A DNA stretch of 64,000 nucleotides, taken from a virus. Below are positions 433 to 63,657 of the stretch, piece by piece (the stretch's first letter is position 1; every line of letters starts with the position of its first letter). The translations under genes were made by a program, and so were the position numbers. The notes beneath the pieces were generated by a model. That model was not told the origin of the DNA. It saw nothing but the letters and a program-made list of their open reading frames with translations, and made no database searches. The DNA lies in the IMG/VR virus record IMGVR_UViG_3300037258_000147, positions 40,681-104,680 of that record, one strand, 5' to 3'.

Positions 433-442
433 AAACCGTCCA

Positions 443-709
443 TTAATTGGACAAATCGTCCTTGTCTTCCGGAGACCAGTATCGGCAACAGCCTTTTATC
501 GGGTCTATAATCTTGAACCCGGTTTTCTTGTCCGAAGGAACTTGCTTGTCTTTTGCGACTATCTTCTGTCGGCAAAGATTTTTTCCTGTTAAATACTCGC
601 AAGTTCCGCAGTGAATTCTGAGAGGGGTCTCGATATATTCAGATACACGAGTTCCTTCTCCGTGGGGTTCGGATTTACCCATCGCGGTTTTGGCTCTTGA
701 GTCCGTCAT
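443..709 (-). CDS. Hypothetical Cys-containing protein
   Basis: 88 aa, CGTC/CC motifs, TAATG coupling with upstream ORF. Confidence 0.6.
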   Translation of the reverse strand: MTDSRAKTAMGKSEPHGEGTRVSEYIETPLRIHCGTCEYLTGKNLCRQKIVAKDKQVPSDKKTGFKIIDPIKGCCRYWSPEDKDDLSN

Positions 710-879
710 TACTTTATTTTCTTTTCCAAAGCCAATCCGTGCATGTCAATTAGTGGAGATTCTTTTCCGTCTCCGTGAAAGCAGTGACCATACCCAGCCT
801 CGGTAAGTTTATCGTAAATCTCGTAGTAGGTTTCTTCGGAGACTGGCAGAGTTACGTAGGTGTAAGTGGAGGTAAGCAT
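709..879 (-). CDS. Small hypothetical protein (56 aa)
   Basis: Own translation MLTSTYTYVTLPVSEETYYEIYDKL...; TAATG overlaps at both ends. Confidence 0.6.
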   Translation of the reverse strand: MLTSTYTYVTLPVSEETYYEIYDKLTEAGYGHCFHGDGKESPLIDMHGLALEKKIK

Positions 880-1061
880 TACTTTTTTCGTTTCCGGGAC
901 TGGCCCGATTCGGACAGGGCGACTGCGATCGCCTGCTTGGGGTTTGTTACTTTCGGTCCTTTTTTAGAACCTGAATGTAGAGACCCGCTCTTAAACTCAT
1001 CCATTACCGTTTTTACGGCAGCGCGTTTTCCAGATTTTGTAGTAGGCTTTTTGTCAGGCAT
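879..1061 (-). CDS. DUF6496-like small basic protein
   Basis: VMDEFKSGSLHSGSKKGPKVTNPKQAIAVALSE pattern. Confidence 0.75.
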   Translation of the reverse strand: MPDKKPTTKSGKRAAVKTVMDEFKSGSLHSGSKKGPKVTNPKQAIAVALSESGQSRKRKK

Positions 1062-2884: not shown

Positions 2885-2986
2885 ATTTTTTCCTTGTCCA
2901 TTAAATGGACGATTAGATTGATTTTGTTAATTAACTGTCGCGCTCGCGAAGGTCGCGCCTTGTGCGTTGCTCACGGTTCCCCAAAC

Positions 2987-5970: not shown

Positions 5971-8300
5971 CGCACCACTCTCCAGTTGAGTGTCAAGGCT
6001 CCGGGCGTGATCGATGCGGAAGTAGAATTGCAGACTTTGAAATTGACGTTGCCAGAAGTCGGATACGGATAGATACTCAAGACCGCACCCGTAGATGACG
6101 CGCCGTAGCCCGTCACTGCCGTGGGGTCGCCGTTGAAGCCCACTGTGATGGTATCCGTGGTCGCCACGCCGGTTGCCGAGACCGTGACTACTGTTTCGCA
6201 AGCTCCAGAGGCTACCGCGCCGGTGTTCATGGCGGCTGTCCCGCTGGCTATCAGCACGCCGAACGCGCCCGCCGTTCCTGTGTTAACGGCAAGCGCCGTA
6301 GCAACGCCAGTGCCGAGACCCGTAACCGCGCTCAGCGGAGCCGCCGCAACTGTCGTGGCGCACGAACCTGCGGAAGTGGTCACGTTGCCGGTAAGTGCGG
6401 GCTGTTGCGCGCACGGCACTGTGCCGCTGTTGATCTGTGCACCGGAAATGCTCTTGTTGGTCAGCGTCTGCGTGTCGCTCGTGCCGACAATCGCTCCCGA
6501 TGGTGCAGACTTCCCGGCGAGCGTGCTTGCATTGCCCCACGCCGCGTTAAAGTTGGTCCCGTCGGTCAGGATAGTGAAGCTGGCAGGACCGAGAACTGTT
6601 GAAGGTCCGTTGTACGTCACCGTCCCGCTAGTGACGGTCAGTGTGCTGCCGCTGGTAACCTGAAAACTCATGATCCCGCCTGTGCACACAGCAGAAGGCA
6701 GCGTCACCGTCACGCTTGCGGTCACGTAGTAGGAGTTCCCCGCGCAGGATGCGGAGAACGAAGTCCCTTCCGTAGTCTGGTTTGTGTTCGCAGCAGCCGC
6801 GCCCATGTCGCCGAGAGCCTGCGTGGGCGTGCGGTACTGAATCAGGTGGAGCGTCGAAGTCGATTCGGCAAACTCCGGGGTTGTAGTTGTGCCAGAGCCG
6901 TCGCTGACATTGCCGCTGCCGCTGGCGTTTGCCAGTACGAACGCATCGGTCGCCAACTTGGTCGTGTTGTCGCCCACGGTTTGCGTAGTCGCCGCCGTGC
7001 CGTTCGGCAGCGCGGGTGTGCCGCTCAAGTTCGAGGCAGTCCCGCCCACGTTGCACGATGTGCAAGTTCCCGTAAGATTAGTAATAACTCCAGATGTTGG
7101 GGTTCCGAGCAACGGGCTAACTAAAGTAGGCGAGGTTGCAAATACTGCCGCACCCGAACCGGTTTCATCAGTCAAGGCACTTGCTAAATTCGCGCTGGAA
7201 GGTGTTGCTAGGAAGGTAGCGACTCCAGTTCCTAATCCAGTAATTCCAGATACCGGAACACTAGTAGCTGCAATAGTTCCGCTTCCGGATACCCCAAGAG
7301 AAGCCCCAGTTCCAACCACCATCGCAGCGGTAGTATTAGTGCTGCTGGTAAGAGCAGAGAAAGCCGAAGAACCAGAACCGCAAGACCCCCAAGTTGGAGT
7401 AGCAGCAGGACCTGCTGAAAGAAAACAATTCCCTAATGTTCCAGCAGAACCGGCTACCTCTAAAGGAGAAGTAGTTCCAGAAAGATTTATCCCAGCAGAA
7501 TAAGTATTTAGTGCGCTGAATGTCTGGGCAATTCCCAAGCCTGCTACTGTAGCACTAGTAGCCGGGAACGTCATTGTAGTAGCGTCTGTTCCGGCAAAAG
7601 TAAGGCTGTTACTTATAGTAAGGGTCTTGGAAGTAGTTCCGCCAGCAACCGAAAACCCTGTTGCGCGCGCAGTGAAAGTCAAACCATTTACGGTAGACGG
7701 AGTAATCGCCCCGAGGGTGATAGTTAGATTAGGAGTCGTTCCTCCAGAAGAAGTACCAGACACTCCGTTTGCTGTGGCTACCCCAATTGCTGTTACTGTC
7801 CCGGTTCCCGGGGCTCCGCCGTCTGTCAACGTGCAAGTAGAACCAGATACTGTACAGGTAACGACGTGGCCGTTTGTCGGAACCGTAACGAAACCTAAAA
7901 TTGTGTTTGAAGTAGTAGCAGCACTTCCCCAAATCGTATGGGCTGCGGAACCCCCGTTAGCTGTCTGAAGAGTTCCCGCACTTGTTCCGTCGATTCCTAA
8001 AACTGGGGTAAATGTTAATGCTGGGGTTGCTCCGGCCATAATCTGACCAACAGAACCTGCAAGGTCTAGCGTAGTCGCGCCCGCACTTCCCCCAACCGCA
8101 ATAGTAGAATGGGGAGAAGTAATCGCATCTCCGCCGCCGCTGCTACTAAACGTAAAGGTCTGCCCCGATTGACTAACTCCCGTGCCGTTAAAGATATACG
8201 GGGGCGGAACTCCGTTGATCGTAGGAGATGGAGTCTGCGCACTCGTCCATTTTATGGACAAAAAAGCGAGCGCGATAAATAATAGATTTCTTGCTTTCAC
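5967..8300 (-). CDS. Gly/Ser/Thr-rich tail-fibre-like protein with signal peptide
   Basis: Fibre-type repeats TGLGTGVATFLATPSSANLASALTDETGSGAAVFATSPTL, DNTTKLAT, QTLTNKSI. Confidence 0.75.
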   Translation of the reverse strand: MKARNLLFIALAFLSIKWTSAQTPSPTINGVPPPYIFNGTGVSQSGQTFTFSSSGGGDAITSPHSTIAVGGSAGATTLDLAGSVGQIMAGATPALTFTPVLGIDGTSAGTLQTANGGSAAHTIWGSAATTSNTILGFVTVPTNGHVVTCTVSGSTCTLTDGGAPGTGTVTAIGVATANGVSGTSSGGTTPNLTITLGAITPSTVNGLTFTARATGFSVAGGTTSKTLTISNSLTFAGTDATTMTFPATSATVAGLGIAQTFSALNTYSAGINLSGTTSPLEVAGSAGTLGNCFLSAGPAATPTWGSCGSGSSAFSALTSSTNTTAAMVVGTGASLGVSGSGTIAATSVPVSGITGLGTGVATFLATPSSANLASALTDETGSGAAVFATSPTLVSPLLGTPTSGVITNLTGTCTSCNVGGTASNLSGTPALPNGTAATTQTVGDNTTKLATDAFVLANASGSGNVSDGSGTTTTPEFAESTSTLHLIQYRTPTQALGDMGAAAANTNQTTEGTSFSASCAGNSYYVTASVTVTLPSAVCTGGIMSFQVTSGSTLTVTSGTVTYNGPSTVLGPASFTILTDGTNFNAAWGNASTLAGKSAPSGAIVGTSDTQTLTNKSISGAQINSGTVPCAQQPALTGNVTTSAGSCATTVAAAPLSAVTGLGTGVATALAVNTGTAGAFGVLIASGTAAMNTGAVASGACETVVTVSATGVATTDTITVGFNGDPTAVTGYGASSTGAVLSIYPYPTSGNVNFKVCNSTSASITPGALTLNWRVVR

Positions 8301-9552: not shown

Positions 9553-9715
9553 TTTTATTATCCTTTGTGGGGTTTTTGACCGACTTGAAGAAGGGGCTCG
9601 GCCTGCCCCACGGTGGTGCAAAACGCCCGCATACTGGGGGCTAATATTTTGTCCACAAAAATGGACAATGTTGTATTGCAAAACTCTAGTTTTAAGGGGG
9701 TTTTGTTATGGAAGA

Positions 9716-11849: not shown

Positions 11850-11870
11850 AAACTTGTCCATTTAATGGAC

Positions 11871-13775: not shown

Positions 13776-13994
13776 AATTTTTGTTGTCCATTTTATGGAC
13801 TAAATTTGAGGACCAGACCGTTGGACACCTCGTTGCTTATTGCGGTCGGCTTGATCTCTTTTATGCGGAAGCCGAGTGGTAATCTTCCGCAGAGCCAAAC
13901 TCACGGTGTAAATTTGTCGGTGCTCTCCCTGGTGTCACACCACTGGTTAGGCAAAAGGTATTAGCTCTGCTACCGGGCAAGGTGTCGCCCATTA

Positions 13995-14355: not shown

Positions 14356-14664
14356 CTAAATCGTATCGTTTTGTTCTAAAGACTCTAACAGCCACAAATC
14401 TACAGACAGTTGGGTCCGATCTTCTTGGTACCCGATCTCCTGTCCATTTTCTGGAAGCAGTTTTTCCGCCAAGATTAGAGTTGGTTCTATTAAAGAATCT
14501 AACCAAGGGTAGTCTGTTCTGGCCCGATCAAGTTCGGCCATATCCGCTAAAATCAGATTGCCGCTGTCCATTTGTGAAAATATATCAGGAAGAGGCGGCG
14601 CTGGTTTTTGCGCTTTGTGGTGATGGAAGCCGAGGATCACATATAACAAACCTACTGAAATCAT
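14356..14664 (-). CDS. Hypothetical protein with N-terminal hydrophobic segment
   Basis: Probable start MISVGLLYVILGF at 14664, since the upstream in-frame part overlaps tRNA-Thr. Confidence 0.55.
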   Translation of the reverse strand: MISVGLLYVILGFHHHKAQKPAPPLPDIFSQMDSGNLILADMAELDRARTDYPWLDSLIEPTLILAEKLLPENGQEIGYQEDRTQLSVDLWLLESLEQNDTI

Positions 14665-14891: not shown

Positions 14892-15047
14892 GTCCATTAT
14901 ATGGACTGAAATTTATGCCAACTCGGTGGACGAAAGTTCGAGGGGGGTGTCTAATCGTCTACCTCTGGTCGCGACTAGTTCTAGGCCGCTGGCTGGAGCT
15001 TCTTCGCCTTATCACAGACCCTTATCCGCAAAAAGGTTGAATAGAAA

Positions 15048-17726: not shown

Positions 17727-17805
17727 ACCTAAACGTAAGTTTCCTTTCTCGTATGTTTTATCATACCACAGAAGTCCAGATAATGGAAATCTTTTCTGTG
17801 AAAAA

Positions 17806-18065: not shown

Positions 18066-18153
18066 TGGCGGAAGATGAAGTAATCGAAACCTTGTCCATT
18101 TAATGGACAGCATCGGGTTCGAGCCGATTTGACCGCCTTGGTCGCCATCTTCC
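18066..18153 (-). tRNA. tRNA-Ser(CGA), probable 8/4 fold; variable arm is the GTCC-N7-GGAC palindrome
   Basis: GGAAGATG/CATCTTCC, ATCGG-CTCGAAC-CCGAT, variable arm TGTCCA-TTAAA-TGGACA. Confidence 0.8.
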
Positions 18154-18299: not shown

Positions 18300-18392
18300 T
18301 GGCGGAGAGTGAGGGCTTCGATCCCCCGTGTCCAAATAATGGACAGCCTCTGTTTAGCAAACAGGCACAATACCGGGCTCTGTCAACTCTCC
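18300..18392 (-). tRNA. tRNA-Ser(GCT); variable arm is the GTCC-N7-GGAC palindrome
   Basis: GGAGAGT/ACTCTCC, TTGCTAA loop, variable arm TGTCCA-TTATT-TGGACA. Confidence 0.85.
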
Positions 18393-19138: not shown

Positions 19139-19162
19139 GTGTCCATTATTTGGACTAAATTT

Positions 19163-44053: not shown

Positions 44054-44085
44054 CTATTTTGTCCATAAAATGGACTAGGAGAAAA

Positions 44086-45605: not shown

Positions 45606-45822
45606 ACCACTTTGAAGTCTATCTGAAATCTACCAGCACTCCGGTTCCGGTAGAAGCCGAAAACTACTTTTGTGAAAAAGACAGCCAGACAGTGTTCTAT
45701 ACCGGCGGTGACGAAGTAGCCCGATTTGGATCGGAAAATGTACGAAATATCGAGAGGCTAGTTCCTCTTGTCTACCCGAAAACTTAAATTTAATTTGTCC
45801 ATAAAATGGACGGGAGAATTGA

Positions 45823-47397: not shown

Positions 47398-48426
47398 ATG
47401 GTAAAAGCTAACAAAAAGATACCCTCAAAACCAATATCCCTGAATGACGAGCAACAGGCCGTGGTGTCGGCCCGATCCGGGGTTTTCCAAGTCCAGGCAG
47501 GCCCGGGAAGTGGAAAGACTTTTGCTTGTACCCAGCGTATGGCCGGAATCCTGAAAGAAGGGGTTTCGCCAGACGATTTACTTTCTTTGTCCTTTACCTC
47601 AACCGGGGCGAAAAACCTAAAGACTAAAATCGAGGAAATTACCGGGGCCTTGTCCATTAATCGGACAGCCGGTACAATGACTTTTCACGGAATGGGGTTG
47701 AGATTTGCCCAAGAAGAAAGAGATGCGTTTAATTTTAAGGTTGCTGAATTCCCTCTTGCTACGGAGCCCGTGGCGTGCAAGCTGTCTGCCGAGGCCGCAA
47801 GACGATATGAAATTGATCCCCGCCTACTCCGGTCCCAGACAAGCCTATATAAGCGGAACCGGATTTCTCCTGCTGAGGCTGTCAAGAGAAGTGAGGCTTC
47901 ACTCAAACCCCAGGAACTGAAACTCGCTTTAGCCTATAAGAACTACGACGCCAAAATGAAGGAAAACGGGGTTTTGGATTTCGACTCTCTAATGTACGAA
48001 ATGGTGGAACTTCTAGAGAAACCAGATGTCCGGAAAAGATGGCAGTATAAATACGTAATTTGCGACGAGGCCCAAGACTGTTGTATTACGGACTGGCAGT
48101 TACTGAAGCTCATTACTGAGAAACACGGAAACTTAATGTGCGTAGGGGACCCCGGCCAGTCGGTTTTCGGATTTCGAGGAGCTTCCCCAGACTTGTTTTT
48201 GAATATGGAAAAAATGTTCCCCGCAGTTCGGAAATTGTTTTTGGCCGCGAACTACCGAAGCACCCCAGAGTTAGTGTCTTTCTTGAAAGAAATCGGACCA
48301 GTTCCTGAGTTGGCTGAAAAATTTCATACGTTAAACAGTTCAGGACCTGCGCCCGAAATAAAAGGTTTTGGAAACCAACAAGACGAAATAAACTGGATAG
48401 TTGGCAAGATCAAGGAGTCCATTTAA
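47398..48426 (+). CDS. UvrD/PcrA-like helicase, N-terminal half
   Basis: LNDEQ, AGPGSGKT, TFH, DEAQD, VGDPGQS.FGFRGA, NYRS. Confidence 0.9.
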   Translation: MVKANKKIPSKPISLNDEQQAVVSARSGVFQVQAGPGSGKTFACTQRMAGILKEGVSPDDLLSLSFTSTGAKNLKTKIEEITGALSINRTAGTMTFHGMGLRFAQEERDAFNFKVAEFPLATEPVACKLSAEAARRYEIDPRLLRSQTSLYKRNRISPAEAVKRSEASLKPQELKLALAYKNYDAKMKENGVLDFDSLMYEMVELLEKPDVRKRWQYKYVICDEAQDCCITDWQLLKLITEKHGNLMCVGDPGQSVFGFRGASPDLFLNMEKMFPAVRKLFLAANYRSTPELVSFLKEIGPVPELAEKFHTLNSSGPAPEIKGFGNQQDEINWIVGKIKESI

Positions 48427-49241
48427 TGGACAAGTCTGTCGCTATTTTAAACCGAACAAATCGGGGACTCCGGCCCTTTGAAGACGCTTTGTCCGAGGCT
48501 GGAGTGAAATACTACCTCGTAGGCCGAAGTGGTTTCTGGAGCCAGCCTGAGATTCGGGCAGTCGTTTCAATCCTGGGCTGTGTTTTGTACCCGGCAGACC
48601 ACTATCTCATGGGGGCTGTTTCCTCTCCGTTCTGGCCAACAAAATTTCTGCCAAAAACGAAAATTTTATCCAGACTAAAAGAAATTAGAGGAGAGCAACC
48701 TAAGGAATCTGCAATATCTCACTGGCAGATGCTTACCACAAGACCGGAATCGGTAGTAGAATCGAAAAACCTAGGGGCACTTCGAGAGTTTACTCAGTTC
48801 GTACACTCGCTCTCCCGATACCGGGATTTAAGAGCAGTAGACGGACTAAAGTCTGTTATGGCGACTCTAAAAGTCGGGGATTATTTTTCTGAAATAGAGG
48901 AAACCCCAGACTCAAGTCCTCTCGACAATCTCCAGGAACTCTTAAGGTTGTCCGAAAAATGGACAAATATCCGGGAGTTTATGGATTACACTAGGCGAGC
49001 TTCGGCGGCTAGTAAGGGTCGTAAAGGAGTGGCTTTAAGTACGATCCACGGATTCAAAGGCATGGAGTCTGATATTGTGTTCCTGGTAGGGTGTCAGGAA
49101 GGCCAAATGCCTCACTCTAAATCAACGGACTTACCTGAAGAAAGAAATCTGTTTTTCGTCGGGTGCTCTCGCCCGAAACAGGGACTTTACATTACTTACA
49201 CTGGGGTCCCTTCACAATTTTTGAAAAAGGAACCCTCATGA
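48426..49241 (+). CDS. UvrD/PcrA-like helicase, C-terminal half
   Basis: AILNRTN, STIHGFKGME, EERNLFFVGCSR. Confidence 0.9.
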   Translation: MDKSVAILNRTNRGLRPFEDALSEAGVKYYLVGRSGFWSQPEIRAVVSILGCVLYPADHYLMGAVSSPFWPTKFLPKTKILSRLKEIRGEQPKESAISHWQMLTTRPESVVESKNLGALREFTQFVHSLSRYRDLRAVDGLKSVMATLKVGDYFSEIEETPDSSPLDNLQELLRLSEKWTNIREFMDYTRRASAASKGRKGVALSTIHGFKGMESDIVFLVGCQEGQMPHSKSTDLPEERNLFFVGCSRPKQGLYITYTGVPSQFLKKEPS

Positions 49242-51363: not shown

Positions 51364-52523
51364 GTTTGTACACTAGTGCTTCGGGGAGGGCCGTCAATCA
51401 CGCTTCAAGTTCCAGTTTGGATACCTACAGGCTGTGCCGACGGAAATTCAAGCTGTCCCGCATCGATGGCTGGCGGCAGAAATCCAGGAAAGCTAGTCTA
51501 GAAATTGGCAAGTGCCTTGAGACCGCTTTACAGTATTATTACGAAAATGGCTGTAAGCCTGATGATTTTTCGGACGAGTGGAAACGCTTGTGGCTGAAAT
51601 TCGAGTCGATTGAACTCGTCTATACAGACCAGGAACAAGACTGGAAAACCGTTTACCAGTTAGGTACCGAGTGGGCGAAATTATTCCACGTAATCCGCGA
51701 TACTCTGCCCATCCGAAATCCTAAGTGGCAACTCCAGTTTTTGAAGGAACTGTGGCCGGGTGACTTGAATCTTGGCGGCATCAACTTCATGGGATATGTG
51801 GATATCCTTTCGATTTTAGCAGACGGGACTCGGTTAATTATCGATGTAAAAACTGCGAAGTCTAGTTTACCCATAACCTCGGGAATGATGGCCCTTGACG
51901 GGCAGCTTCGTAAATACGCTTGGCTTTCCGGAATCCGAGAAGTCGGGTTTTTGAACTTCGTTAAGTGCGACCCAAATTCTTTCCGTAAAGGAGTTGGGGT
52001 AACACTACTAGAAGATACTAGAGACTGGAAAGCCGGTCAGGTTCTGGTAGTCGCTAAATATTCGGCGGCAAAAGAAGATTCTGCGGAGTTATTTTACTTA
52101 GGTACCGAAGAAACCGTCCATAAAATGGACGAAGAACTTGACGCGATTTCTGGAAAAGGGGCTAAAGAAAAAACAGAGGCTGTTTTCTCCGGATATCTGG
52201 CAGACGGGAGACTTTGCGTAATAACAAGATCGGCGCTCACCAAAGTTAAAATCCAGTTTGTTCGTGGTACAATACCCGAAGAAGACCTGCCCGAAATTGG
52301 CCAGCAACTAGGTACAGATACCTATGCTATATTTCAGGCGCAGAAAACCGGATATCCGGCAGATGGGGGAGTAAGATTTCCAAACGCGATCTGTGGATGG
52401 TGTGAGATGCGTGGAATTTGCCTAAAGGACAACAGGCTGCGGGACGAACTTCTCGTCCAAATAGGCCCCAAAGTTGAAGAGGATGACTGGCTAAAGGAAC
52501 TGGAAACAGAGGAGACGGAATGA
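51360..52523 (+). CDS. PD-(D/E)XK exonuclease (AddB/Cas4-like, Fe-S Cys pattern)
   Basis: S.SSL.TY..C.RK; G.VD...IIDVKT; QL..Y; CGWCEMRGIC. Confidence 0.85.
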   Translation: MSLYTSASGRAVNHASSSSLDTYRLCRRKFKLSRIDGWRQKSRKASLEIGKCLETALQYYYENGCKPDDFSDEWKRLWLKFESIELVYTDQEQDWKTVYQLGTEWAKLFHVIRDTLPIRNPKWQLQFLKELWPGDLNLGGINFMGYVDILSILADGTRLIIDVKTAKSSLPITSGMMALDGQLRKYAWLSGIREVGFLNFVKCDPNSFRKGVGVTLLEDTRDWKAGQVLVVAKYSAAKEDSAELFYLGTEETVHKMDEELDAISGKGAKEKTEAVFSGYLADGRLCVITRSALTKVKIQFVRGTIPEEDLPEIGQQLGTDTYAIFQAQKTGYPADGGVRFPNAICGWCEMRGICLKDNRLRDELLVQIGPKVEEDDWLKELETEETE

Positions 52524-53437
52524 TCGACAAACCCTATGACGAATACTCGGGCAAGGTCATAAAAAACCTGCTGACTTGGCAACAGGTCGGTTACATAAAC
52601 AGAAAAGTTGTGTTCTCAGAATCCTGTGTTGGCAATTTGTCCGTCCGAGAGCTTCGTGGTTTGCTCGCCGACGCTTGGTTAGCCGGACTCGCGTACAGCT
52701 TGAATCTGATTGAAGGGGAGATGTGATGTTCACTCGGCTTAAAAGAGTTTGGAAGGTCCTGCGCGGGAAGGAATATGGCTATCCCCCGTCAGAAGTCATC
52801 TACGTGAAATCCGGAAAAGCAGAAAATCAGTTTGTCCAGCTTCTCGCTTGGCGGGATACAGTTCTCGCTCTGGATGCGCAGGGTAAGATTTGGGAACTTC
52901 GAGAGCAGGCAGGATATCCCTATGGATTTGTAAACCAACTTGTTCAGGAAAGTCCGAGGAGCTACTGATGAAAGAAGAATACAAAGCATCTTGGAATGAA
53001 GAAATTACTGACTGCTGTGAGGTTAGTCCTCAGTACGGAGGAGGATATCCGGAATATTACAAGAAGTGTCCACAATGTGGGGACGGCTCTCTATTTTGGC
53101 CCACAAAAACCCATTACGTCTATCATCCTAGCAGCTACGAGAAGAATTTGGAAGATAGGATCAAAAGTTTGGAGCAAGAGGCATGAGTCTATCCAGACGT
53201 GGTTTCTTTGGTATGCTGGCTGGTCTGGCGGCTTGTCCATTATTCGGACTAAAAAGCCTATACGCTGGTCCTATTCCCGGGCATAATTACGTCTTCCACT
53301 ATAAGAATTTTATCTGCGACGACGTAGTCTCCCCCAAAAATAGTATTGACCCCAAAAATTACGATGACTACTGCCGAGTATTTACGTGGAAACATGAACC
53401 CGGAATTCTTTGGTGGTCTAAGGAGAGTCATGACTAA
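52520..53437 (+). other. Small hypothetical genes (52520-52726, ~52723-52968, ~52968-53186, 53183-53437 with Tat-like SRRGFF)
   Basis: Coupled ORFs. Confidence 0.6.
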
Positions 53438-54062
53438 ACTCGTACTAATTTCTGACACCCACGGTAAGCACAGACAGTTTGATGTTCCAGACGGAGATAT
53501 TTTGATCCACGCCGGGGATATTATGACCTCTGGCTGGGACGTATCGGAAGTCATAGATTTCGATGTCTGGTTAGGGTCTCTACCCCATCCGTTTAAAATC
53601 GTAATCGCTGGTAACCACGACTGGATTTTCGAGAAGTATTACGCTACTAGACAGCATATCACCAACGCTTTGTACCTAGAAGATTCTGGCATCGAAATGA
53701 TGGGTCTGAAATTTTGGGGATCGCCAGTCCAGCCGGAATTCAATAATTGGGCCTTCAACCGAAAACGCGGCGAAGATATTCAGAAACACTGGGACAAAAT
53801 CCCGGACGACACGGACGTTTTAATCACCCACGGACCTCCTAGTGGGATTTTAGACTGGACCAAACCTGGACGGGAAAGTTTAGGCTGCCGAAATCTACGT
53901 AAAACTATAGATCAAATCAAACCAAAACTTCACGTGTTCGGGCATATTCATGGGGGTTACGGGGTGAGTAGAGTAGAAGATACCACTTTTGTAAACGCCT
54001 CTTTGCTAGACGAAGCCTATAGACCTGCTAATGAACCGGTTGTCGTGGAGTTGTCCGATTAA
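53430..54062 (+). CDS. Calcineurin-like metallophosphoesterase
   Basis: ISDTH, HAGD, AGNHD, THGPP, FGHIH. Confidence 0.9.
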   Translation: MTKLVLISDTHGKHRQFDVPDGDILIHAGDIMTSGWDVSEVIDFDVWLGSLPHPFKIVIAGNHDWIFEKYYATRQHITNALYLEDSGIEMMGLKFWGSPVQPEFNNWAFNRKRGEDIQKHWDKIPDDTDVLITHGPPSGILDWTKPGRESLGCRNLRKTIDQIKPKLHVFGHIHGGYGVSRVEDTTFVNASLLDEAYRPANEPVVVELSD

Positions 54063-54562
54063 TGGAATTATATAGGGAAGCAGTAGTCAGTGACGACCAG
54101 AAATACCGCTATACTCTTTACCGGGAATGGCGGGAGGATATTTTCGACCCGCTGAAAATTCTGAACTTCGTCATGTTGAATCCTTCCAAGGCAGACGGGC
54201 TGGTAGACGACCCGACTATCCGAAAATGTATTGGTTACGCAAAAATCGGCGATTTCAACGCAATTCGCGTAGTTAATTTATTCGCTCTGCGCTCTACTGA
54301 CCCTAAACAGTTACAATACGAGTACGTTAACGGAGGTGATACAATAGGCCCGTTGAACGATTCCTATGTCCGAGAACTGCCTTCGGAAGAAACTGTTTGT
54401 GTGGCTTGGGGTTCTACCTTCCAAAACAAACCTTGGGTCCAAAACAGAATTGCTAAAACTTTCCAGTTTCTAAACAGGAAACTATACTGTCTCAAAAAGA
54501 CCAAAGACGGCCATCCGTGCCATCCAGTGATGCTCGGATACGGACCTTTAATCGAATTTTAG
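54062..54562 (+). CDS. DUF1643 family protein
   Basis: YRY.L.R.W...MLNPS.AD...DDPTIR.C...VNLFA.R.T.P...AWG...P.HP. Confidence 0.9.
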   Translation: MELYREAVVSDDQKYRYTLYREWREDIFDPLKILNFVMLNPSKADGLVDDPTIRKCIGYAKIGDFNAIRVVNLFALRSTDPKQLQYEYVNGGDTIGPLNDSYVRELPSEETVCVAWGSTFQNKPWVQNRIAKTFQFLNRKLYCLKKTKDGHPCHPVMLGYGPLIEF

Positions 54563-54584
54563 TCCGAAAAATGGACGGAAACAC

Positions 54585-55151: not shown

Positions 55152-56361
55152 AGAAAAAACGCCGTATAAAAACCCACTGGCTGGTCTTGACTTGCGAGGA
55201 GTCCAAGCTCTCTTGAAAGAGCGGCTCTCTGTATTGGCGCATGGGTACAAATTACCCTACATGCAGTGGTATGAAGACGATTTCAAGAGTTCGGAGGGCG
55301 TCGAGGAGATGGCCCCGCTGTCCCGTCTGATGTATCGCCAGCTTCTGGCAAAGGCTTGGGTGTCGCGGGACGCTCCCTATCTCCCTGCGGACAAGGAAAG
55401 GCTCTTTCGGTTGGCTGATTGCCCGAACGAAGAGTTGTGGGAGAAACATAGTGGTCAGGTTCTGGCGATGTTTGAGAAGACAAAAGACAAGAAAAGGTTG
55501 TTCCATTCGCGGCAACTTTTGGATTATGTCACACAAATCGTGAAAATTTCTGCTAATACAATTAACGGAAGAAAAGGTGGTCGTCCTCCCAAATCAAAGA
55601 AAATAAAAGACATACCAGAAACCCAAATGAAACCCGATCCAAACCCAACGGAAACGCAATCAGAACTAGAACTAGAATCAAAACTAGAATCAAAATCACA
55701 AGCAGAAATATACGATTCCAGCGAACAAGGGGAAGCTATGAAAACCGAGAGACAGATCGACATCCTGACACAGCAGTTCTTCGGAAAGAAAGCTTATCTG
55801 CGAGGACGTAACGGGGGAGAACTAAAAACCCTTATCTTGCTGCACAAGGGATCGTCCGTAGAACGGGCTTACATCGAGTGGTGCCAGTCCAACCAAGGCA
55901 ACCCTGATATCCACGATCCCGTGGCCGTCTTTCTTGAAGCCGCGAACGAGTGTCTTGGCGCAGAAACCCCCCTCCAAGCCGTTTTGAAAGACCCAGAGGT
56001 AGTTTCCCTTGCCCGAGAGCTTTCCTACCTCGCCTCGGGTCAAATAGCGTTCTTAGACAAGCAACGTGTGAGGCTAGCGGAAGTCCTGAAAGAGTTTTCG
56101 GCTCCTGAAATCATTTCGGTGTTCGGAGTCTGGCTCGGAGAACAAGACTTGTCTGACCCCAAAAACGTGCCTTACCTCCCGGGAAAGTTTGTCCAGATTG
56201 TGGACGGATTAGCGTACGCGGCCCGAAAAAAGTCGATAGAATCCGAGAAAACCCGTTTAACTCGGGAAGAAACCGCCAAGAAACTCCAAAAGCAAGCGGA
56301 AGACGAGCGGGCAAAAAAACCAGTGGAATCTGACTTCGATCCGCTGGCAGATGTGGTATAA
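55144..56361 (+). CDS. DUF1376/YdaU-like replication initiator
   Basis: PYMQWY.DDF...Y..LL..AW...LP; NG.KGGRP linker. Confidence 0.7.
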   Translation: MDEEKTPYKNPLAGLDLRGVQALLKERLSVLAHGYKLPYMQWYEDDFKSSEGVEEMAPLSRLMYRQLLAKAWVSRDAPYLPADKERLFRLADCPNEELWEKHSGQVLAMFEKTKDKKRLFHSRQLLDYVTQIVKISANTINGRKGGRPPKSKKIKDIPETQMKPDPNPTETQSELELESKLESKSQAEIYDSSEQGEAMKTERQIDILTQQFFGKKAYLRGRNGGELKTLILLHKGSSVERAYIEWCQSNQGNPDIHDPVAVFLEAANECLGAETPLQAVLKDPEVVSLARELSYLASGQIAFLDKQRVRLAEVLKEFSAPEIISVFGVWLGEQDLSDPKNVPYLPGKFVQIVDGLAYAARKKSIESEKTRLTREETAKKLQKQAEDERAKKPVESDFDPLADVV

Positions 56362-57995: not shown

Positions 57996-58217
57996 TAGGG
58001 TTTTAATTCCGAATAATGGACACGAGGTGGTAATTGAATATCAATCAGAGACTGCGGAACAACTTTGAGGAAGAGGTGCTGGTTCCGGCGTTTAACATCC
58101 TTGACGACGTTATTGAGTGGCTCGCGGACAATGTCGCCCCAGAAGACGTAGTTGCAGACGTCCAACTAGAAACTTGGGCCTACGATAATGGATTTAAGAA
58201 ATTTGAATAGGGGGAAC

Positions 58218-59302: not shown

Positions 59303-60059
59303 TGGAAGACAAGATTAAGTTATATCAAGGCGACTGTCTGGAAATTATGAAGCAAATTCCGGATAAGTCGGTGGACTTTATTCTTTGCGACTTCCCTTAT
59401 GGAACTACTCAGAATAAATGGGATTCGATTATCTCTCTCTCTCCGAATTGTGGAGGCATTATAACAGAATCTCTTCGGGACCGGTGGTGCTAACAGCCCA
59501 ATCTCCGTTTGACAAAATATTAGGGGCGTCGAACATATCTTTATACAAGTATGAATGGATATGGAACAAATCAAGAGCTACCGGACACCTGAACGCCAAT
59601 CGTCAGCCACTAAAAAATCACGAAAATGTTTTGGTATTTTACGACCGGCAATGCCCGTACAATCCGCAAGGGCTTTCTCGGAAGATAATACCCACCGTCA
59701 GACGCGGAAGGGATAACGGAAGCAATTATGGAAAGTCAGATAAAGACGCGGTGCAGGAATTCGAAAACTACCCCCGAAGCGTTCTTAATTTTCCCAGCGA
59801 GGCAAAGCCCGTACATCCAACCCAAAAACCAGTCCAATTAATGGAATATATGATTAACACTTATACAAATAGAGAAATGACCGTCCTAGACAATTGCATG
59901 GGTTCAGGAACAACTGGAGTAGCTTGCGTAAACACGGGACGAAAATTCATCGGGATTGAAAAAGATCCCGTGTATTTTGAACTAGCTAAGAAAAGAATTG
60001 AGGAAGCACAGAACTCTCGTTTAGAAACGGATTGGCTCGCCGAATTGGAGACTGATTAG
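59299..60059 (+). pseudogene. N6A/N4C DNA methyltransferase (beta class), frameshifted at (TC)6
   Basis: GDCL...CDFPYG in frame 1; HPTQKP...VLDNCMGSGTTG in frame 2; deleting one TC at 59432-59443 fuses them (IISLSELW). Confidence 0.85.
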
Positions 60060-61903
60060 TGGATGATCTCGACAAAATTAAATCGGACCCGGCGGTACTA
60101 AGAGTCTACAATCAATACGTCCAGCTAAAAAAGAACGGGGATAAGTATCAAGGGTGCTGCCCAATTCATCAGGAAAAAACTCCGTCGTTTACAGTATTTC
60201 CGGATATGCGCGCGTGTTGCTTCGGCTGCGGAACAAATCTCAATATTTTTCAACTTGTCCAGAAAATGGATAACTGCGATTTTCAGACAGCGGTACAAAA
60301 AGTGAAAAAAGAAATTGGGGGCTGGGAGTCTACAAAACAAAAAGTAGAATCTATATTTAAGCCGGTCGCCGAGCAAAAAGTTTACAAAACAATTCCACTT
60401 TCTTCTTGGCCTAGGGTAGAATCTGCCCTAAAGAGCAGCAAAGAAGCGATAACCTACCTTCAAGAGCAGAGAGGAATCGGAGTAGAGACTGCCCAGAAAT
60501 TAAGGCTTGGATTTGTCCAGAATATCGGGATACTAGCAGGCGAACAAGGCGCGGACATTGCCGACAAGGGCTGGTTAGCCTTTCCGTGTATTGAAGGCGA
60601 CAAAATTGTCTCGGTTAAGTACCGTTCAATTGTTAGGAAAAAGCCCGGAGGATTTGCCCGCCAGCCTGGAATGGCTACCGCTCTCTGGAATACCGAGACT
60701 ATAGACCCGTTTGAGCCGCTGTACGTTACCGAAGGAGAATTTGATGCGACATGCCTAGAGGCTGCTGGTTTTCGAGCCGTAAGTGTTCCCTCAGCCGGTA
60801 CAAAACTGACTCCGGAGATGAAGGACCAGTTGATGACCGCCTCCTGCGTTATATTATCAGGAGATTCGGATACTACGGGCGCGGGATATATGAACAAGCT
60901 TTGGAGAGAATTATCCGAACGGGTATATCTTTTGACATGGCCGTCTGGTTTGAAGGATGCAAATGATGTTTACTTGTCGAACCCTCAGCACTTCCGCAAA
61001 ACTGTAGAGGAATTGACACAAAAAGCTAAGTCCCAGCCGGTCCCAGACGTTTATAGTATCCAGGAAGTCCTGTCAAACGGAGAGGATAAGAGTTTGTCAG
61101 ATCGAGAAGACCGGCTTAGGTTTCCCTGGACGGAAGTAGACCAAGGAGCTATACTTTTACCCGGGTCTTTGCTTGGAGTGATGGCTACAAATACGGGACA
61201 AGGAAAGACAGCTTTTACTCTTCAATACAGCCTGTACGGGGCGCGGAAATATAACGAAACTGTAGTAAACTGGCAGTGCGAGCTATCCCCATCCGAGATT
61301 GCGGTTATGGTAGCTGCGCAAGTCTTGAGAAAAAATAGGAATTTTCTCACAAAAGACGATCTAAAACTGGCCGCAAACGAGCTAGAAGGTATACAATATT
61401 ATATAGGAAATAATCCTTCTGTAACGAATATCATGGACGTGTTTGACCTGATTGAAGCGGCTGTCCGTAGAATAGGGGCAACACACTGGGTTCTCGACAA
61501 CCTGCATTTTTATACCACGGGAATCGACGATGAAGTTCGAGTACAAGCCGCCGCCATGAAACGAGGCAAACAAATATGTGTTACTTACGGGTGTAAGGGA
61601 ACCATAGTTTTTCAACCACGTAAAGCCACGAGTCAGTCGAAGGGAAAAAAGACCCACATCTCCGATGTAAAAGGATCGGCATCCGCCGGAGACACTTCAG
61701 ACGCTGTGGTAGCTATTCACCGAGAACTGTCCAAAGAAGACGGAAAAAACGATATTTATGAGGAAAAAACTTTGGTGGAATGGTTAAAAACCCGTTCTAA
61801 AGGAATTGGAAAAGCGTCTTCGTTCTTGCATTTCTTCGGAGAATTTGCCTGCTTCGAGTCGTTGGAATCGAACTACGGAAGTCCAGAAAATGGACAAAAC
61901 TGA
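60059..61903 (+). CDS. Primase-helicase (CHC2 Zn finger, TOPRIM, SF4 helicase)
   Basis: CPIH.EKTPSF...CFGC; TEGEFDA; DSD..G; KDAND; TGQGKT; LDNLH. Confidence 0.88.
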   Translation: MDDLDKIKSDPAVLRVYNQYVQLKKNGDKYQGCCPIHQEKTPSFTVFPDMRACCFGCGTNLNIFQLVQKMDNCDFQTAVQKVKKEIGGWESTKQKVESIFKPVAEQKVYKTIPLSSWPRVESALKSSKEAITYLQEQRGIGVETAQKLRLGFVQNIGILAGEQGADIADKGWLAFPCIEGDKIVSVKYRSIVRKKPGGFARQPGMATALWNTETIDPFEPLYVTEGEFDATCLEAAGFRAVSVPSAGTKLTPEMKDQLMTASCVILSGDSDTTGAGYMNKLWRELSERVYLLTWPSGLKDANDVYLSNPQHFRKTVEELTQKAKSQPVPDVYSIQEVLSNGEDKSLSDREDRLRFPWTEVDQGAILLPGSLLGVMATNTGQGKTAFTLQYSLYGARKYNETVVNWQCELSPSEIAVMVAAQVLRKNRNFLTKDDLKLAANELEGIQYYIGNNPSVTNIMDVFDLIEAAVRRIGATHWVLDNLHFYTTGIDDEVRVQAAAMKRGKQICVTYGCKGTIVFQPRKATSQSKGKKTHISDVKGSASAGDTSDAVVAIHRELSKEDGKNDIYEEKTLVEWLKTRSKGIGKASSFLHFFGEFACFESLESNYGSPENGQN

Positions 61904-61909
61904 GGTACA

Positions 61910-62968
61910 ATGAACATCTCCGCACCAATCTTAAAAGCCGCTCTCAAGAAACTTGGGCCTGTAAAGACCGAGGTTTATACGGTCTCAGACAGATATATCC
62001 TGGGCCGGGATACGGACGTACTAGTTCTAGAATCCTGTTCCCTCGGCCTAGGTGAATTCAATATCAACGGAAAAAAGTTCTCGCAAGTAATCAACAGAAT
62101 GTCCGGAAATATTGAGATTACTCGGGACGACAAAAAACTGGTAATAAAGTCGGCCAAGGCAAAAATTGAACTTGAGATTTTCCAGATCAAGACCCCAGTT
62201 CTTCCTGAAATTCCCGCCAAGACTTTTAGGTTGGATGCGGAAAAATTCAAGTCCGCGCTGGCCTCCGCGTCAGCCTACGCCTCGCCAGCAAAATCCGCTG
62301 CGTTTGGAGACGTGGTTTTGATTCAAAGTCTGCCGTTGGGCATTGAAGAAACTTCTCCATCAGGATATAGAATTGTCGGGACGGACAGTATTATCGAGGG
62401 AATTGCTGAGGTAGAATACCCCCTGCCTAGTGAGTTCAAAATCTTACTTAATTTAACAGCGGCCTCGGCTGTCCGCTTAATGGACTCGGATAAAATTAGC
62501 TTTGGGGAAACAAATACCGCGCTGTATTTTGAAAGTCCTGATACCAAGGTTTTTGCGGCTAAGCCCCTGAAGACTTTTCCAGACCACGATAAACTCTTGG
62601 CGCTTCCAACTGTCGTGAAATACGGATTCGACCCAGAGGAACTCCTGTCTGCTCTAAAAACTATAGAACCTTTAATCGACGAATCCGTAGATGATGGGGC
62701 AATTTCTTTACATTTTCGGGATAATGTGGTAGAATGTTCTTCAGTCGGAGTTGGAAGCACTGCATTAGATCAAGCTGGCTGCGAGCAGATAGACCCCGAT
62801 CCTATATTCGATCCAAGGGAAATCAAGATTAAAATGCTGCATAAACGCTTGTCAGGATTTTTGAGCAAGACTAAAGGGCAGGCAAGCCTAGGATTAACTT
62901 CTCACCCAGTTAGGCTGGAATCAAACGGAGTTGTTGTTCTTACTATGCCGGTGAAGGACCGTAAATGA
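61910..62968 (+). CDS. Sliding-clamp (DNA pol III beta)-like protein
   Basis: 352 aa, VGTD, FPDHDKL and C-terminal LTMPV, as in the beta-clamp pattern; clamp loader in the same window. Confidence 0.65.
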   Translation: MNISAPILKAALKKLGPVKTEVYTVSDRYILGRDTDVLVLESCSLGLGEFNINGKKFSQVINRMSGNIEITRDDKKLVIKSAKAKIELEIFQIKTPVLPEIPAKTFRLDAEKFKSALASASAYASPAKSAAFGDVVLIQSLPLGIEETSPSGYRIVGTDSIIEGIAEVEYPLPSEFKILLNLTAASAVRLMDSDKISFGETNTALYFESPDTKVFAAKPLKTFPDHDKLLALPTVVKYGFDPEELLSALKTIEPLIDESVDDGAISLHFRDNVVECSSVGVGSTALDQAGCEQIDPDPIFDPREIKIKMLHKRLSGFLSKTKGQASLGLTSHPVRLESNGVVVLTMPVKDRK

Positions 62969-63657
62969 CCGAAGCCATTATTTTAGCGCCGATAAACCAA
63001 GAAGCCGCCCTGAAAATTGGGGAGGAAATTGACGTACTACTAAGTCATATATCCACCAACGAACTTAAGCTGTCGAAATCCTACGCCCGTTTAGGCAGTA
63101 AGTTGAAAGAAGTCAAGGTAAACCAGTATTGGATATCGCTTGGATACGAAAAATTCACAGGTTATTTAGAACACGTTCGAGCTAAATTAGGAAAAGAGAG
63201 GTCGCATTTGTACGCTATTTTGTCCGTAGCCGAGAGTCTACTTCCTCATATCTCCGAAGAAAAACTTGAGCAGATCGGAATAAGCAAAGCTCACGAACTA
63301 AGGCGGCTGATACAGCAAGGCGGAAGCGTAGAAACAGACGTAGACTCCGGCGACTCGGATCAACCTGTCCATTTATTGGACTATGCCTCGGACCCCAAGA
63401 CTACAGCAAAAGCTCTTAGGGTAAAGGTAAATGAAGCCCTTCATATTTTCGAGCAGCCTAAAGGAAACTGGTTTGACATCCAAGGATTTTACGCAACCCC
63501 AGACGAGAGAAAGGAAATTGAAGAGTTCTGGGAGATTGGTAGGAAGGTTTTGCAAATTGAGGCGGAGCAGGAGCACGAAGTCCGCAAGCAAGTTTTCTTA
63601 GCTTCAGTCCGAGAATCTACAAGTAGCTGGGTCGTGGAGGTGGAAAATGGACGGTGA
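62965..63657 (+). CDS. DUF3102-like putative DNA-binding protein
   Basis: LG..L.EVK....W...GY.KF..YL...LG.ERS.LY...IGISKA.EL. Confidence 0.6.
   Translation: MTEAIILAPINQEAALKIGEEIDVLLSHISTNELKLSKSYARLGSKLKEVKVNQYWISLGYEKFTGYLEHVRAKLGKERSHLYAILSVAESLLPHISEEKLEQIGISKAHELRRLIQQGGSVETDVDSGDSDQPVHLLDYASDPKTTAKALRVKVNEALHIFEQPKGNWFDIQGFYATPDERKEIEEFWEIGRKVLQIEAEQEHEVRKQVFLASVRESTSSWVVEVENGR

Follow-up and report, generated by a model that had tools for sequence, protein, structure and literature searches.

A dispersed near-palindromic DNA word in an uncultured phage genome and a candidate ParB/Noc-type reader

An uncultured phage of ~105 kb carries the 15-bp near-palindromic word GTCC-N7-GGAC about once per 1.7 kb, and selection acts on this DNA word itself, inside genes too. 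On balance, the copies probably form an array of duplex-DNA sites that a phage-encoded symmetric dimer would bind.

Results

The word is enriched and strictly spaced

The window (the whole 64,000-nt stretch of DNA analyzed here) holds 41 exact copies, in keeping with an earlier count of at least 39. Shuffling the window 100 times with dinucleotides preserved, we obtained 0.87 ± 0.92 copies (maximum 3); the first-pass annotation had expected about one by chance. The enrichment survives a protein-preserving background as well: coding sequences hold 26 copies, compared to 3.8 ± 1.6 (maximum 9) when synonymous codons were shuffled 300 times. Across all 104,680 bp of the contig there are 60 exact copies; the reversed-pattern control gave 3. 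The distances between sites are more even than random in four genomes (CV 0.62-0.81; p = 0.03, 0.09, 0.015, and <0.001). The exact sites in the window are as follows (no strand assigned; G001, G002, G003, and G009 are relatives).

438..452, between ORF 443-682 and the large terminase gene, 5 nt before the terminase start
2896..2910, intergenic, 11 nt before the start of ORF 2603-2884 (-)
8245..8259, within the first 60 nt of ORF 5967-8300 (-)
11856..11870, intergenic, tRNA array
13786..13800, 10 nt upstream of tRNA-His
14892..14906, intergenic, 57 nt upstream of tRNA-Thr
18094..18108, intergenic, tRNA array
18330..18344, in a tRNA gene, within the variable arm (at nt 49-63) of the tRNA-Ser(gct) at 18300-18392
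19141..19155, 2 nt upstream of tRNA-Leu(taa), heading a tRNA cluster
20797..20811, intergenic, 89 nt upstream of HNH ORF 20165-20707 (-)
24901..24915, 3 nt past a stop codon, 29 nt before ORF 24945
25728..25742, upstream of a sigma-70-like promoter, with 19 nt between the site end and the -35 hexamer (starts 25762)
25987..26001, intergenic, 69 nt before ORF 26071
27108..27122, intergenic
27790..27804, 9 nt past a stop, 17 nt before ORF 27822, Shine-Dalgarno directly after
29108..29122, 12 nt before ORF 29135
29962..29976, in the 79-aa basic-protein ORF 29926-30165
30406..30420, in ORF 30196-30513
34357..34371, 4 nt past the stop of ORF 33987-34352
35547..35561, across the -35 position of an extended -10 promoter, which stops 6 nt short of the ORF 35583 ATG
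35762..35776, first base shared with the end of a TAG stop, 11 nt before ORF 35788
36300..36314, in an ORF, arms kept in the G001 orthologue
36971..36985, internal ATG starts the PolA-like ORF 36980-39169, likewise in G003
38048..38062, in the PolA-like ORF, G003 orthologue identical
39591..39605, in the RNA-ligase ORF
41007..41021, overlaps the stop of ORF 40633-41016, 10 nt before ORF 41032
42800..42814, in an ORF, 9 nt before the clamp-loader start, kept in G001
43095..43109, in the clamp-loader ORF, arms kept in G001
44061..44075, intergenic, 10 nt before ORF 44086
45199..45213, in the RecT ORF, arms kept in G001
45797..45811, 9 nt past a stop codon, 11 nt before ORF 45823
47652..47666, in the UvrD N-terminal ORF, arms kept in G002
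48417..48431, at the UvrD split, spacer supplies the TAA stop of one UvrD half and, overlapping it, the ATG of the other, likewise in G001 and G002
48950..48964, in the UvrD C-terminal ORF, not in orthologues (lineage-specific gain)
52116..52130, in the PD-(D/E)XK nuclease ORF, kept in G002, with a single mismatch in G001
53235..53249, flanked by small, uncertain ORFs
54562..54576, first base completes the DUF1643 ORF's stop codon, 8 nt before ORF 54585
56191..56205, in the DUF1376 ORF, kept in G001 and G002
61881..61895, at the 3' end of the primase-helicase ORF, with the clamp ORF 14 nt further on
62471..62485, in the sliding-clamp ORF, kept in G001 and G002
63367..63381, in the candidate reader's own gene, position kept in 6 of 6 genomes compared, G009 with its own arm variant

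Single-mismatch copies number 55 across the genome versus 35 expected. The majority miss just the outermost base, and relaxing this base raises the array from about 60 to about 72 sites. All 12 one-mismatch copies reported previously are present, together with a thirteenth at 59832. The spacing is strictly 7: no copies with N6-spaced arms were found, and the sole N8 copy, also reported before, occurs at chance level and is probably a site with a one-base insertion. The variant copies are listed below with the mismatched base.

9651..9666, N8 variant
14442..14456, last base
17774..17788, last base
21865..21879, last base
26745..26759, last base
31158..31172, base 4
31392..31406, last base
31876..31890, base 14
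32026..32040, first base
41119..41133, last base
54053..54067, last base
58007..58021, first base
59832..59846, last base
60257..60271, last base

Relatives keep the word inside genes

Eight related ~100-kb phage contigs, with about 50% protein identity, carry 16 to 76 copies each at the same density; G009 uses TTCC-N7-GGAA instead. Comparing in-ORF sites with their orthologues (~50% identity), we find that all 8 arm bases are kept at 16 of 31 sites versus 1.9% of random positions drawn from the same genes (p = 4.5e-20), a retention about 28 times above random. The spacers at these sites are not kept (49% versus 55%), and the encoded peptides bend to fit each genome's own spacer. The recurring peptides noticed earlier (SPENGQ, LSEKWT, VRKMD, and similar) are real, and they result from translation of the word in its three frames.

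Two equal halves and an asymmetric spacer

The spacer is constrained, as the first-pass annotation had stated: position 5 is A or G, and positions 9-11 read A-A-T in 55-58 of 60 copies. Flanking bases lean weakly toward T on the 5' side and toward A/G on the 3' side. Each relative has its own preferred spacer, and spacers evolve in concert. The consensus is strongly asymmetric and uniform per genome, which a plain homodimer leaves unaccounted for.

Such spacers recall the crossover sites of a tyrosine recombinase, one of which (window 30792-31865) all relatives retain (39-51% identity). On this view, the recombinase would sit on the inverted arms, with the 7-bp asymmetric spacer as the overlap region. 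This region must be identical between partner sites, so spacers would be uniform within a genome and different between genomes. Inverted arms around a 7-bp asymmetric core resemble the layout of tyrosine-recombinase core sites, and the concerted spacer evolution also fits. However, the arms are just 5-7 bp long, and spacers are not identical at every site within one genome. Gene order is conserved, though sixty active sites would scramble the genome, and the boundaries that separate conserved from lineage-specific gene blocks show no excess of sites (20% versus 22%, p = 0.56). We consider this explanation barely credible.

The best reading is that the word is recognized as sequence by two equal halves and not as a hairpin. 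Along with the fixed N7 spacing, four observations point this way. First, near-misses affect one side only, mostly at the outer base. Second, 14 of 50 sites in G009 are mixed, and the outer bases are uncoupled (Fisher p = 0.12). Third, the spacer orientation is flipped at 10 of 115 orthologous positions. Fourth, one copy lies in the variable arm of tRNA-Ser.

Placement relative to genes

Sites prefer gene edges: 34 of 60 are intergenic or at ORF edges, though only 16% of the genome is non-coding. About a fifth of gene junctions carry a site, typically between the stop codon and the next ribosome-binding site. Of 212 sites in six genomes, 57 have their end no more than 20 nt (mostly 8-17 nt) ahead of a called start codon, and a Shine-Dalgarno lies directly 3' of the site. 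A second class has the start codon inside the word. Spacers are co-oriented with transcription by about 2:1 (136:65), which makes the fifth pair G-U instead of A-C. The transcribed word would form moderately stable 5-6-bp hairpins (-4.9 to -7.6 kcal/mol), and 4 sites are followed by a tRNA gene at a distance of 1-10 nt.

All of these start-codon, orientation, hairpin, and tRNA observations would suit an RNA-level element, in which an RNA-binding protein or nuclease would bind or cut a hairpin that lies just 5' of the ribosome-binding site or surrounds the start codon, and so control translation, processing, or mRNA stability. Yet about one third of the sites are antisense and still conserved, one of them upstream of the same gene in four genomes. 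Many conserved copies lie deep in long ORFs, kilobases from the next gene start. The orientation flips also speak against it, and so does the tRNA copy, because binding or cutting there would harm. No compensatory arm changes were seen, the two half-sites varying independently, and the word has no Rfam family match. Proximity to ribosome-binding sites is equally expected from compaction of short intergenic gaps. An RNA element therefore appears improbable.

A mark of self at the DNA level, and not a regulator, is another reading. Phage DNA would be protected, by protein bound at the word or by a modification there, against host defense or against a nuclease of the phage that attacks unmarked DNA; alternatively, the mark would organize DNA for replication or packaging. 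It would fit the even, orientation-independent coverage, which runs through both arms of the genome and through ORFs, and the fact that core promoters are rarely overlapped by sites. Two higher-GC segments, probably recent acquisitions, have few or zero copies, and the phage encodes many nucleases (endonuclease VII, PD-(D/E)XK nuclease, exonuclease, HNH). However, lineage-specific gene pairs carry sites at their junctions as often as conserved ones (22% each), and no nuclease is linked to the word. No methyltransferase or base-modification gene was recognized among the scanned proteins, and the preference for junctions suits gene expression better than shielding. We judge a self mark to be decidedly improbable.

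Performing a search for strong sigma-70-like promoters, we found 17, of which 6 have a site within 120 bp, at offsets of -84, -80, -78, +47, +50, and +98. Such rare overlap with core promoters counts against the main reading. A promoter matching the consensus at 12 of 12 positions (29033-29061) implies a start point that places the center of site 29108 at about +47.

A candidate reader encoded beside the sliding clamp

Two adjacent genes are relevant here.

61910..62968, + strand, sliding-clamp gene, its stop overlapping the start of the candidate reader gene
62965..63657, + strand, candidate reader of 230 aa, predicted ParB/Noc-type DNA-binding domain without a CTPase domain

The product of 62965-63657 is the leading candidate for the protein that binds the word, a tentative assignment that we hold at somewhat less than even. 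Its structural model (pLDDT 87) best matches the DNA-binding domains of ParB/Spo0J/Noc. The predicted helix-turn-helix fold spans about residues 33-160, and the model lacks the N-terminal CTPase domain. Weaker leads (language-model atlas, BFVD) point to ParB HTH and DUF3102. The homodimer prediction scored 0.72, and the best of 3 controls 0.00; of proteins with solved structures, 20 of 30 that are pairs of one chain attained that mark, as did 1 of 23 that are single chains. Prediction runs agreed in at least 94% of contacts with a partner pLDDT of at least 80. The predicted interface comprises residues 10-59 and 166-226, leaving the helix-turn-helix (64-92) free.

The candidate is present in every relative examined. 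Loci encoding a recognizable homologue hold several copies of the word in 13 of 13 IMG/VR and 3 of 3 metagenome cases, and two more loci with partial matches hold several as well. Its close family comprises 119 clusters at ≥49% identity, has many members on ~100-kb contigs, and has no Pfam domain. Among the candidates named earlier, 62965 is the one that gains support; 34502 and 35583 are unlikely readers, with no orthologue in any motif-keeping relative. Covariation between the recognition helix and the word is not clean. In G009, K replaces the otherwise invariant R79, coinciding with the altered outer base, in this one lineage only. No correspondence is seen between H81, found only in G000, and the AAAAT spacer, or between the SVATD variant and the outer base.

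The setting is a lytic-type replication operon, not an immunity region, which counts against the proposal. Synteny is kept across a cluster of sliding clamp, candidate reader, sigma-like factor, and Cys-rich protein. The sigma-like factor, the Cys-rich 140-aa protein, the 79-aa basic protein, and four ~80-aa paralogues share the candidate's phage distribution, which weakens its assignment as the reader.

The conserved 172-aa sigma-like factor (genome 251-769, beyond the window) shows Sigma70 r2 and r4 matches and a PHROG sigma-factor match (7.5e-12), and its gene adjoins that of the candidate reader. The word could accordingly be its promoter element: the A-A-T/ATAAT spacer would be -10-like, GGAC the discriminator, and transcripts would start at the ribosome-binding site. 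In a composite form, a dimer would sit on the arms and sigma on the core. The spacer A (-11-like) and T (-7-like) are kept in every lineage, the orientation bias and fixed start-codon distance agree, and no other dispersed enriched word able to serve as its promoter was found. However, this leaves the palindromic arms unexplained, and the 12 nt examined upstream show no -35-like conservation. About a third of the sites point the wrong way, and many conserved in-ORF copies are kilobases away from the next gene start. Transcripts of the start-codon-in-word class would begin past the ATG, and site 29108 lies downstream of a perfect sigma-70 promoter. We find a promoter role very improbable.

A proposed mode of action and comparable arrays

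A DNA-level site for a dimeric phage protein, as first suggested, is supported by the invariant symmetric arms, fixed spacing, independent half-sites, in-ORF conservation, and somewhat even spacing of copies. Each monomer would contact one (G/T)TCC(A/G) half-site, the two lying one helical turn apart (11 bp center to center) with an A/T-rich core between, and the reader would pair via its own N- and C-terminal helices. Dimers bound at about a fifth of gene junctions and inside long genes would give roughly even coverage. The leading proposal for the effect is genome-wide control of transcription by roadblock or occlusion, a function to which we nevertheless give well below even odds. Genome organization is our second choice. 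No ParA-type partner was seen, which counts against classical segregation.

The earlier suggestion of a possibly undescribed system is not supported, because comparable arrays have been published. Similar site arrays are known in other phages and are mostly unexplained. The closest cases are the 17-bp dyad repeats of Cluster O mycobacteriophages (PMC4351075), stoperators (PMC9283540), KorB sites (PMC11790492), and Noc sites (PMC8429893). The candidate shares its predicted DNA-binding fold with ParB/Spo0J/Noc and differs from them by the predicted absence of the CTPase domain. In its proposed roadblock or occlusion role, the phage array would resemble stoperators and KorB.

The palindrome saturates the phage genome

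The first-pass annotation had claimed a genome-wide enrichment of the 15-bp near-palindrome GTCC-N7-GGAC, hereafter the word, whose outer 4+4 bases we call the arms and whose middle 7 we call the spacer or core. Counting upholds this claim, with 41 copies in the window against 0.87 expected. The whole source contig (104,680 bp; an IMG/VR phage rated 97% complete), of which the window covers bases 40,681-104,680, holds 60 exact copies, compared with 3 for the reversed-pattern control. Performing synonymous-codon shuffling within genes, which preserves all protein sequences, we find 3.8 ± 1.6 copies inside coding sequences, against 26 observed. One-mismatch copies are modestly enriched (55 vs 35), most of them missing the outermost base alone, and relaxing that base gives about 72 sites. 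The spacing is N7, with N8 seen once and N6 never. Within the spacer, position 5 holds a purine and A-A-T fills positions 9-11, while past the 15-mer only 2-3 bases are weakly kept. The distances between sites are more even than random (CV 0.62-0.81). Searching the literature, we found no paper mentioning the word; the only matches were CueR-type TCC-N7-GGA boxes, which are unrelated.

A second dispersed motif was considered and rejected, as the remaining enriched k-mers are 15-bp tandem repeats within one repeat-protein ORF. This ORF (27822-28499) carries about 14 such repeats at about 27911-28120, the second-strongest k-mer enrichment in the genome, and probably encodes a pentapeptide-repeat protein.

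The genome is organized in two arms. Gene order in the relatives places the two contig ends side by side on the phage map.

Genome layout and main features (window coordinates unless marked genome)
genome 64.6 kb to contig end, then on through 1-6.2 kb: rightward arm; tyrosine recombinase, PolA-like polymerase, RNA ligase, clamp loader, RecT, SSB, split UvrD, PD-(D/E)XK nuclease, primase-helicase, sliding clamp, sigma-like factor, endonuclease VII
genome 6.3-64.3 kb: leftward arm; structural genes, large terminase, portal, 28 tRNA genes
9716-19138 (-): 28-tRNA array
47398-49241: UvrD, split into two ORFs
62965-63657 (+): candidate reader of the word, 230 aa
genome 251-769 (L005:251-769), outside the window: sigma-like factor, 172 aa

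Sites prefer gene junctions and reach into coding elements

The sites are concentrated outside ORFs: 27 of the 60 are intergenic and 7 more straddle ORF ends, in a genome of which only 16% is non-coding. About one-fifth of gene junctions are occupied, lineage-specific junctions as often as conserved ones. Of 212 sites in six genomes, 57 have their end within 20 nt upstream of a called start codon, typically at 8-17 nt. At these start-proximal sites, the Shine-Dalgarno sequence abuts the GGAC 3′ side. The first G of a site often completes a TAG stop. A second class places the start codon, ATG, within the word itself, as happens at the PolA-like gene and at the C-terminal UvrD half. The UvrD gene is split exactly inside one copy, the spacer providing the overlapping TAA stop and ATG start, and both split and site are identical in arrangement in two relatives (G001 and G002). 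The word also forms the variable arm of tRNA-Ser(gct), and in two genomes a total of four sites precede tRNA 5′ ends by 1-10 nt.

Sites occur within 120 bp of 6 of the 17 strong sigma-70-like promoters (at -84, -80, -78, +47, +50 and +98), and overlap with a core promoter is rare. At site 35547 the word lies over the -35 position of a promoter of the extended -10 type (TG-n-TATAAT; window 35547-35585). This promoter stops 6 nt short of the ATG that opens a 59-aa ORF, which implies a leaderless mRNA.

The arms are conserved across a divergent clade

Relatives were found via the terminase (66-70% identity), and the mean protein identity to them is about 52% by reciprocal best hits. We found no nucleotide relative of the contig among isolated phages, and protein identity to any of these is only about 24%. 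Eight relatives carry the word at equal density.

Copies of the word in eight relatives
53 in 93 kb
40 in 75 kb
27 in 47 kb
24 in 49 kb
16 in 31 kb
56 in 110 kb
30 in 78 kb
76 in 97 kb

This divergence (about 50% protein identity over at least nine large contigs) makes selection on the word testable. Orthologues align without gaps at 31 in-ORF sites; all eight arm bases are kept at 16 of these, compared with 1.9% of random same-gene positions (p = 4.5e-20). Spacer identity in the same alignments is 49%, not above the 55% background. The dominant asymmetric spacer differs from lineage to lineage, and the peptides encoded at the sites shift to suit the spacer of each genome. Two relatives carry the spacer in opposite orientations within one tail gene; over all genome pairs, orthologous sites have the same orientation in 105 cases, flipped in 10 and symmetric in 5. 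Judged from these alignments, strong purifying selection acts on the DNA word as such, at a cost to protein sequence, to a tRNA arm and to the split helicase gene.

One 92-kb relative (G009; loci L162-L166) carries TTCC-N7-GGAA instead, in 31 copies with the spacer unchanged, and GTCC...GGAC in only 6. This genome is a natural switch of arm specificity.

The word is probably a duplex DNA site

A transcribed word could act as a hairpin, and an RNA-level element would account for two observations: the transcribed word can fold (-4.9 to -7.6 kcal/mol), and the spacer runs in the direction of the genes about twice as often as against it (136 co-directional, 65 antisense). Part of this bias arises, however, because the TAA and ATG of the spacer serve as stop and start; the ORF-edge class alone stands at 28:2. 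Compensatory changes between the arms are absent, and near-miss copies deviate on one side only. In G009 the outer bases vary independently, with 14 of 50 sites mixed (Fisher p = 0.12). Antisense copies are kept in relatives, the orientation is able to flip, and copies lie deep within ORFs and in a tRNA. An Rfam scan of the window at gathering thresholds returned tRNAs only. These observations argue against the RNA element, and we conclude that duplex DNA is probably the form in which the word is recognized, by a pair of equivalent readers, one per half-site, a helical turn apart.

A plain sigma-70-family promoter was also considered for the word and is unlikely: about one-third of sites are antisense, conserved copies lie deep in ORFs, and the 12 nt upstream of the word show no -35-like conservation.

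The spacer is asymmetric and uniform within each genome, which a plain homodimer does not explain and which would suit core sites of a tyrosine recombinase. Such sites, or a recombination hotspot, are less likely, as the sites show no enrichment at gene-block boundaries and gene order is conserved among relatives. The same asymmetry and uniformity keep alive a composite model in which a phage sigma factor acts together with the half-site readers of the duplex.

A conserved small protein is a candidate reader

A reader of the word must be conserved wherever the arms are. Three proteins had been put forward by the first-pass annotation, and two of them, at 34502 and 35583, drop out, being without orthologues in relatives. 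The third, at 62965, is present in all large relatives and is a predicted homodimer, so that this much of the proposal stands; its binding of the word we infer only.

Every large relative encodes this candidate reader at 43-59% identity. Its close family comprises 119 clusters at 49% identity or more, many with members on ~100-kb contigs, and shows no Pfam domain; a profile search added about 300 more distant representatives (50%-identity clustering). Single-protein scans of IMG/VR for phages with distant homologues returned nothing, and isolated phages gave no homologue. Searched against GTDB genomes, the terminase revealed no prophage, and the candidate matched only one contig (3.5 kb, in the bin of an Acidimicrobiales MAG); this contig is probably a stray piece of phage DNA.

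An initial structure model from 6 sequences reached pLDDT 53 and was not used; with 56 homologues the pLDDT was 87. Foldseek of this model against the PDB gave nothing significant, and a profile search of PDB sequences had no matches. None of the 56 homologues has a Pfam match to the ParB_N CTPase/clamp domain. In the model, two long N-terminal helices form the predicted dimer interface, which leaves the helix-turn-helix free. The homodimer prediction scored 0.72, compared with 0.00 in the best of 3 controls; 20 of 30 proteins whose solved structure is a pair of one chain attain this score, as does 1 of 23 whose structure is a single chain. Contacts agreed between runs to at least 94%, at pLDDT of at least 80. 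As reader, the predicted dimer would face a 15-bp word; dimers of the ParB family read palindromes of 14-16 bp.

At its start, the candidate gene shares bases with the stop codon of the sliding-clamp gene. Next come the sigma-like factor (Sigma70 r2 + r4; PHROG sigma factor, 7.5e-12) and then a Cys-rich protein of 140 aa, both kept in all relatives in this order. A site inside the candidate gene is kept in all six genomes compared. In G009, whose outer base is altered, K replaces the R79 that is otherwise invariant ahead of the recognition helix; coming from one lineage, this covariation is only suggestive. Two further correlates, recognition-helix H81 and the SVATD variants, were discarded, since neither tracks the motif variants. 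A Walker-A pattern search, a crude test for a ParA-type ATPase, returned the clamp loader only, which would argue against classical partition.

Comparison with known dispersed sites

Genome-saturating phage palindromes have been known since 2015, from the Cluster O mycobacteriophages (Corndog and relatives). Their 17-bp dyad repeat has 7-bp arms and an N3 A/T-rich spacer, and its 34 copies in a ~70-kb genome occupy short intergenic gaps as well as 5′-proximal and mid-ORF positions (PMC4351075). The repeat shows a slight orientation preference, holds positions mostly common to relatives and is not promoter-tied; its authors proposed a dimeric regulator and left the function open (PMC4351075). 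It is the nearest published case. Like it, the word has inverted arms (invariant by definition of the pattern) and an A/T-rich spacer of odd length, and recurs in the relatives at mostly equal positions (16-76 copies per contig, beside more than 30 per Cluster O genome). Unlike it, the word has another sequence, a longer and asymmetric spacer, and another host and phage group; moreover, the clade here is far more divergent, and a specific candidate reader is named.

To our knowledge, the asymmetric stoperators are the only dispersed phage array whose mechanism has been worked out. A genome has dozens of stoperators, each 13-15 bp long, located both at gene junctions and within genes, with a lineage-specific consensus that evolves with the phage. 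They are asymmetric, oriented with transcription and read by a two-domain monomer, whose binding affects transcription genome-wide. Stoperators and operators of Cluster A mycobacteriophages, sites of the L5/Bxb1-type immunity repressor, are treated in PMC9283540 and PMC6550527. The word resembles them in its dispersal over junctions and gene interiors and in its lineage-specific consensus, but its arms are symmetric and its orientation, only about 2:1, flips at orthologous positions. No L5/Bxb1-type repressor appeared among the Pfam and PHROG matches of the subset of ORFs scanned.

Through a helix-turn-helix, KorB binds a dispersed short palindrome, in many cases distant from core promoters, and regulates numerous operons; it has 12 sites, a CTPase clamp domain and the partners KorA and IncC. 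In contrast, the candidate reader is without a CTPase domain, the Walker-A search found no ParA, and the sites number 60-76. KorB, a ParB-family global repressor with operator sites on plasmid RK2, is treated in PMC11790492. Noc of Bacillus subtilis, which reads NBS sites, is cellular, CTP-dependent and membrane-tethering and acts in the control of cell division (treated in PMC7383237 and PMC8429893). NBS density on the chromosome is far lower than that of the phage word, and the candidate reader, as modelled, would keep only the fold of the DNA-binding domain. By analogy, stoperators, KorB operators and Noc sites may serve as functional counterparts of the word.

What is new here is the structural reader candidate, the test of half-site independence and the G009 arm variant. 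The clade offers a concrete, testable reader in a small candidate protein of predicted ParB/Noc fold without a CTPase domain, and the arm variant is a useful natural test of it. If the candidate binds the word, its family would add a new class to the genome-wide DNA binders of phages, and the role of the array would be directly testable with one protein and one oligonucleotide.

Possible function of the array

Sites placed at junctions and covering the genome evenly suit transcriptional control through roadblocks or occlusion, in the manner of stoperators and KorB, or else genome organization or self-marking, and we infer that the array acts in one of these ways.

A more elaborate design, which we regard as a long shot, would be a two-layer switch at about one-fifth of junctions. 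The CTPase-less ParB-fold protein would dock as a dimer on the symmetric arms, and the asymmetric ATAAT-like core would serve the phage's own sigma factor as a -10 element; the gene of this factor adjoins those of the reader and the sliding clamp. Filling the 60-76 evenly spaced sites would then flip the genome between transcription programmes, or mark it as self. If true, this would be a genome-wide regulatory design undescribed for any phage, and the Cluster O repeats might be explained too.

Other features of the genome

Four paralogous proteins of ~80 aa are encoded at window 35788-36030, 36741-36980, 40370-40624 and 46826-47071, and all relatives have them. The three that were aligned are 43-46% identical to one another. 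None has a Pfam match, and the fourth matches phrog_19191, a PHROG family of unknown function. A 79-aa basic protein found no match in a language-model atlas. Beside the tRNA array, window 22582-22923 (-) encodes a 113-aa protein with an RF-1 domain, similar to ArfB-type peptidyl-tRNA hydrolases.

Two segments are higher in G+C (4-kb bins) and may both be recent acquisitions. The segment at window 2987-8300 (57.5%) holds ORFs of 747, 247 and 777 aa and, close to the upper edge, one copy of the word. The other, at about 30800-34350 (54.6%), holds the recombinase and ORFs not kept in relatives, and has no copy of the word. Finally, the HNH endonuclease at window 20165-20707 (-) is 84-88% identical to copies in three relatives, compared with about 52% for the average protein, which suggests a mobile or recently exchanged gene.
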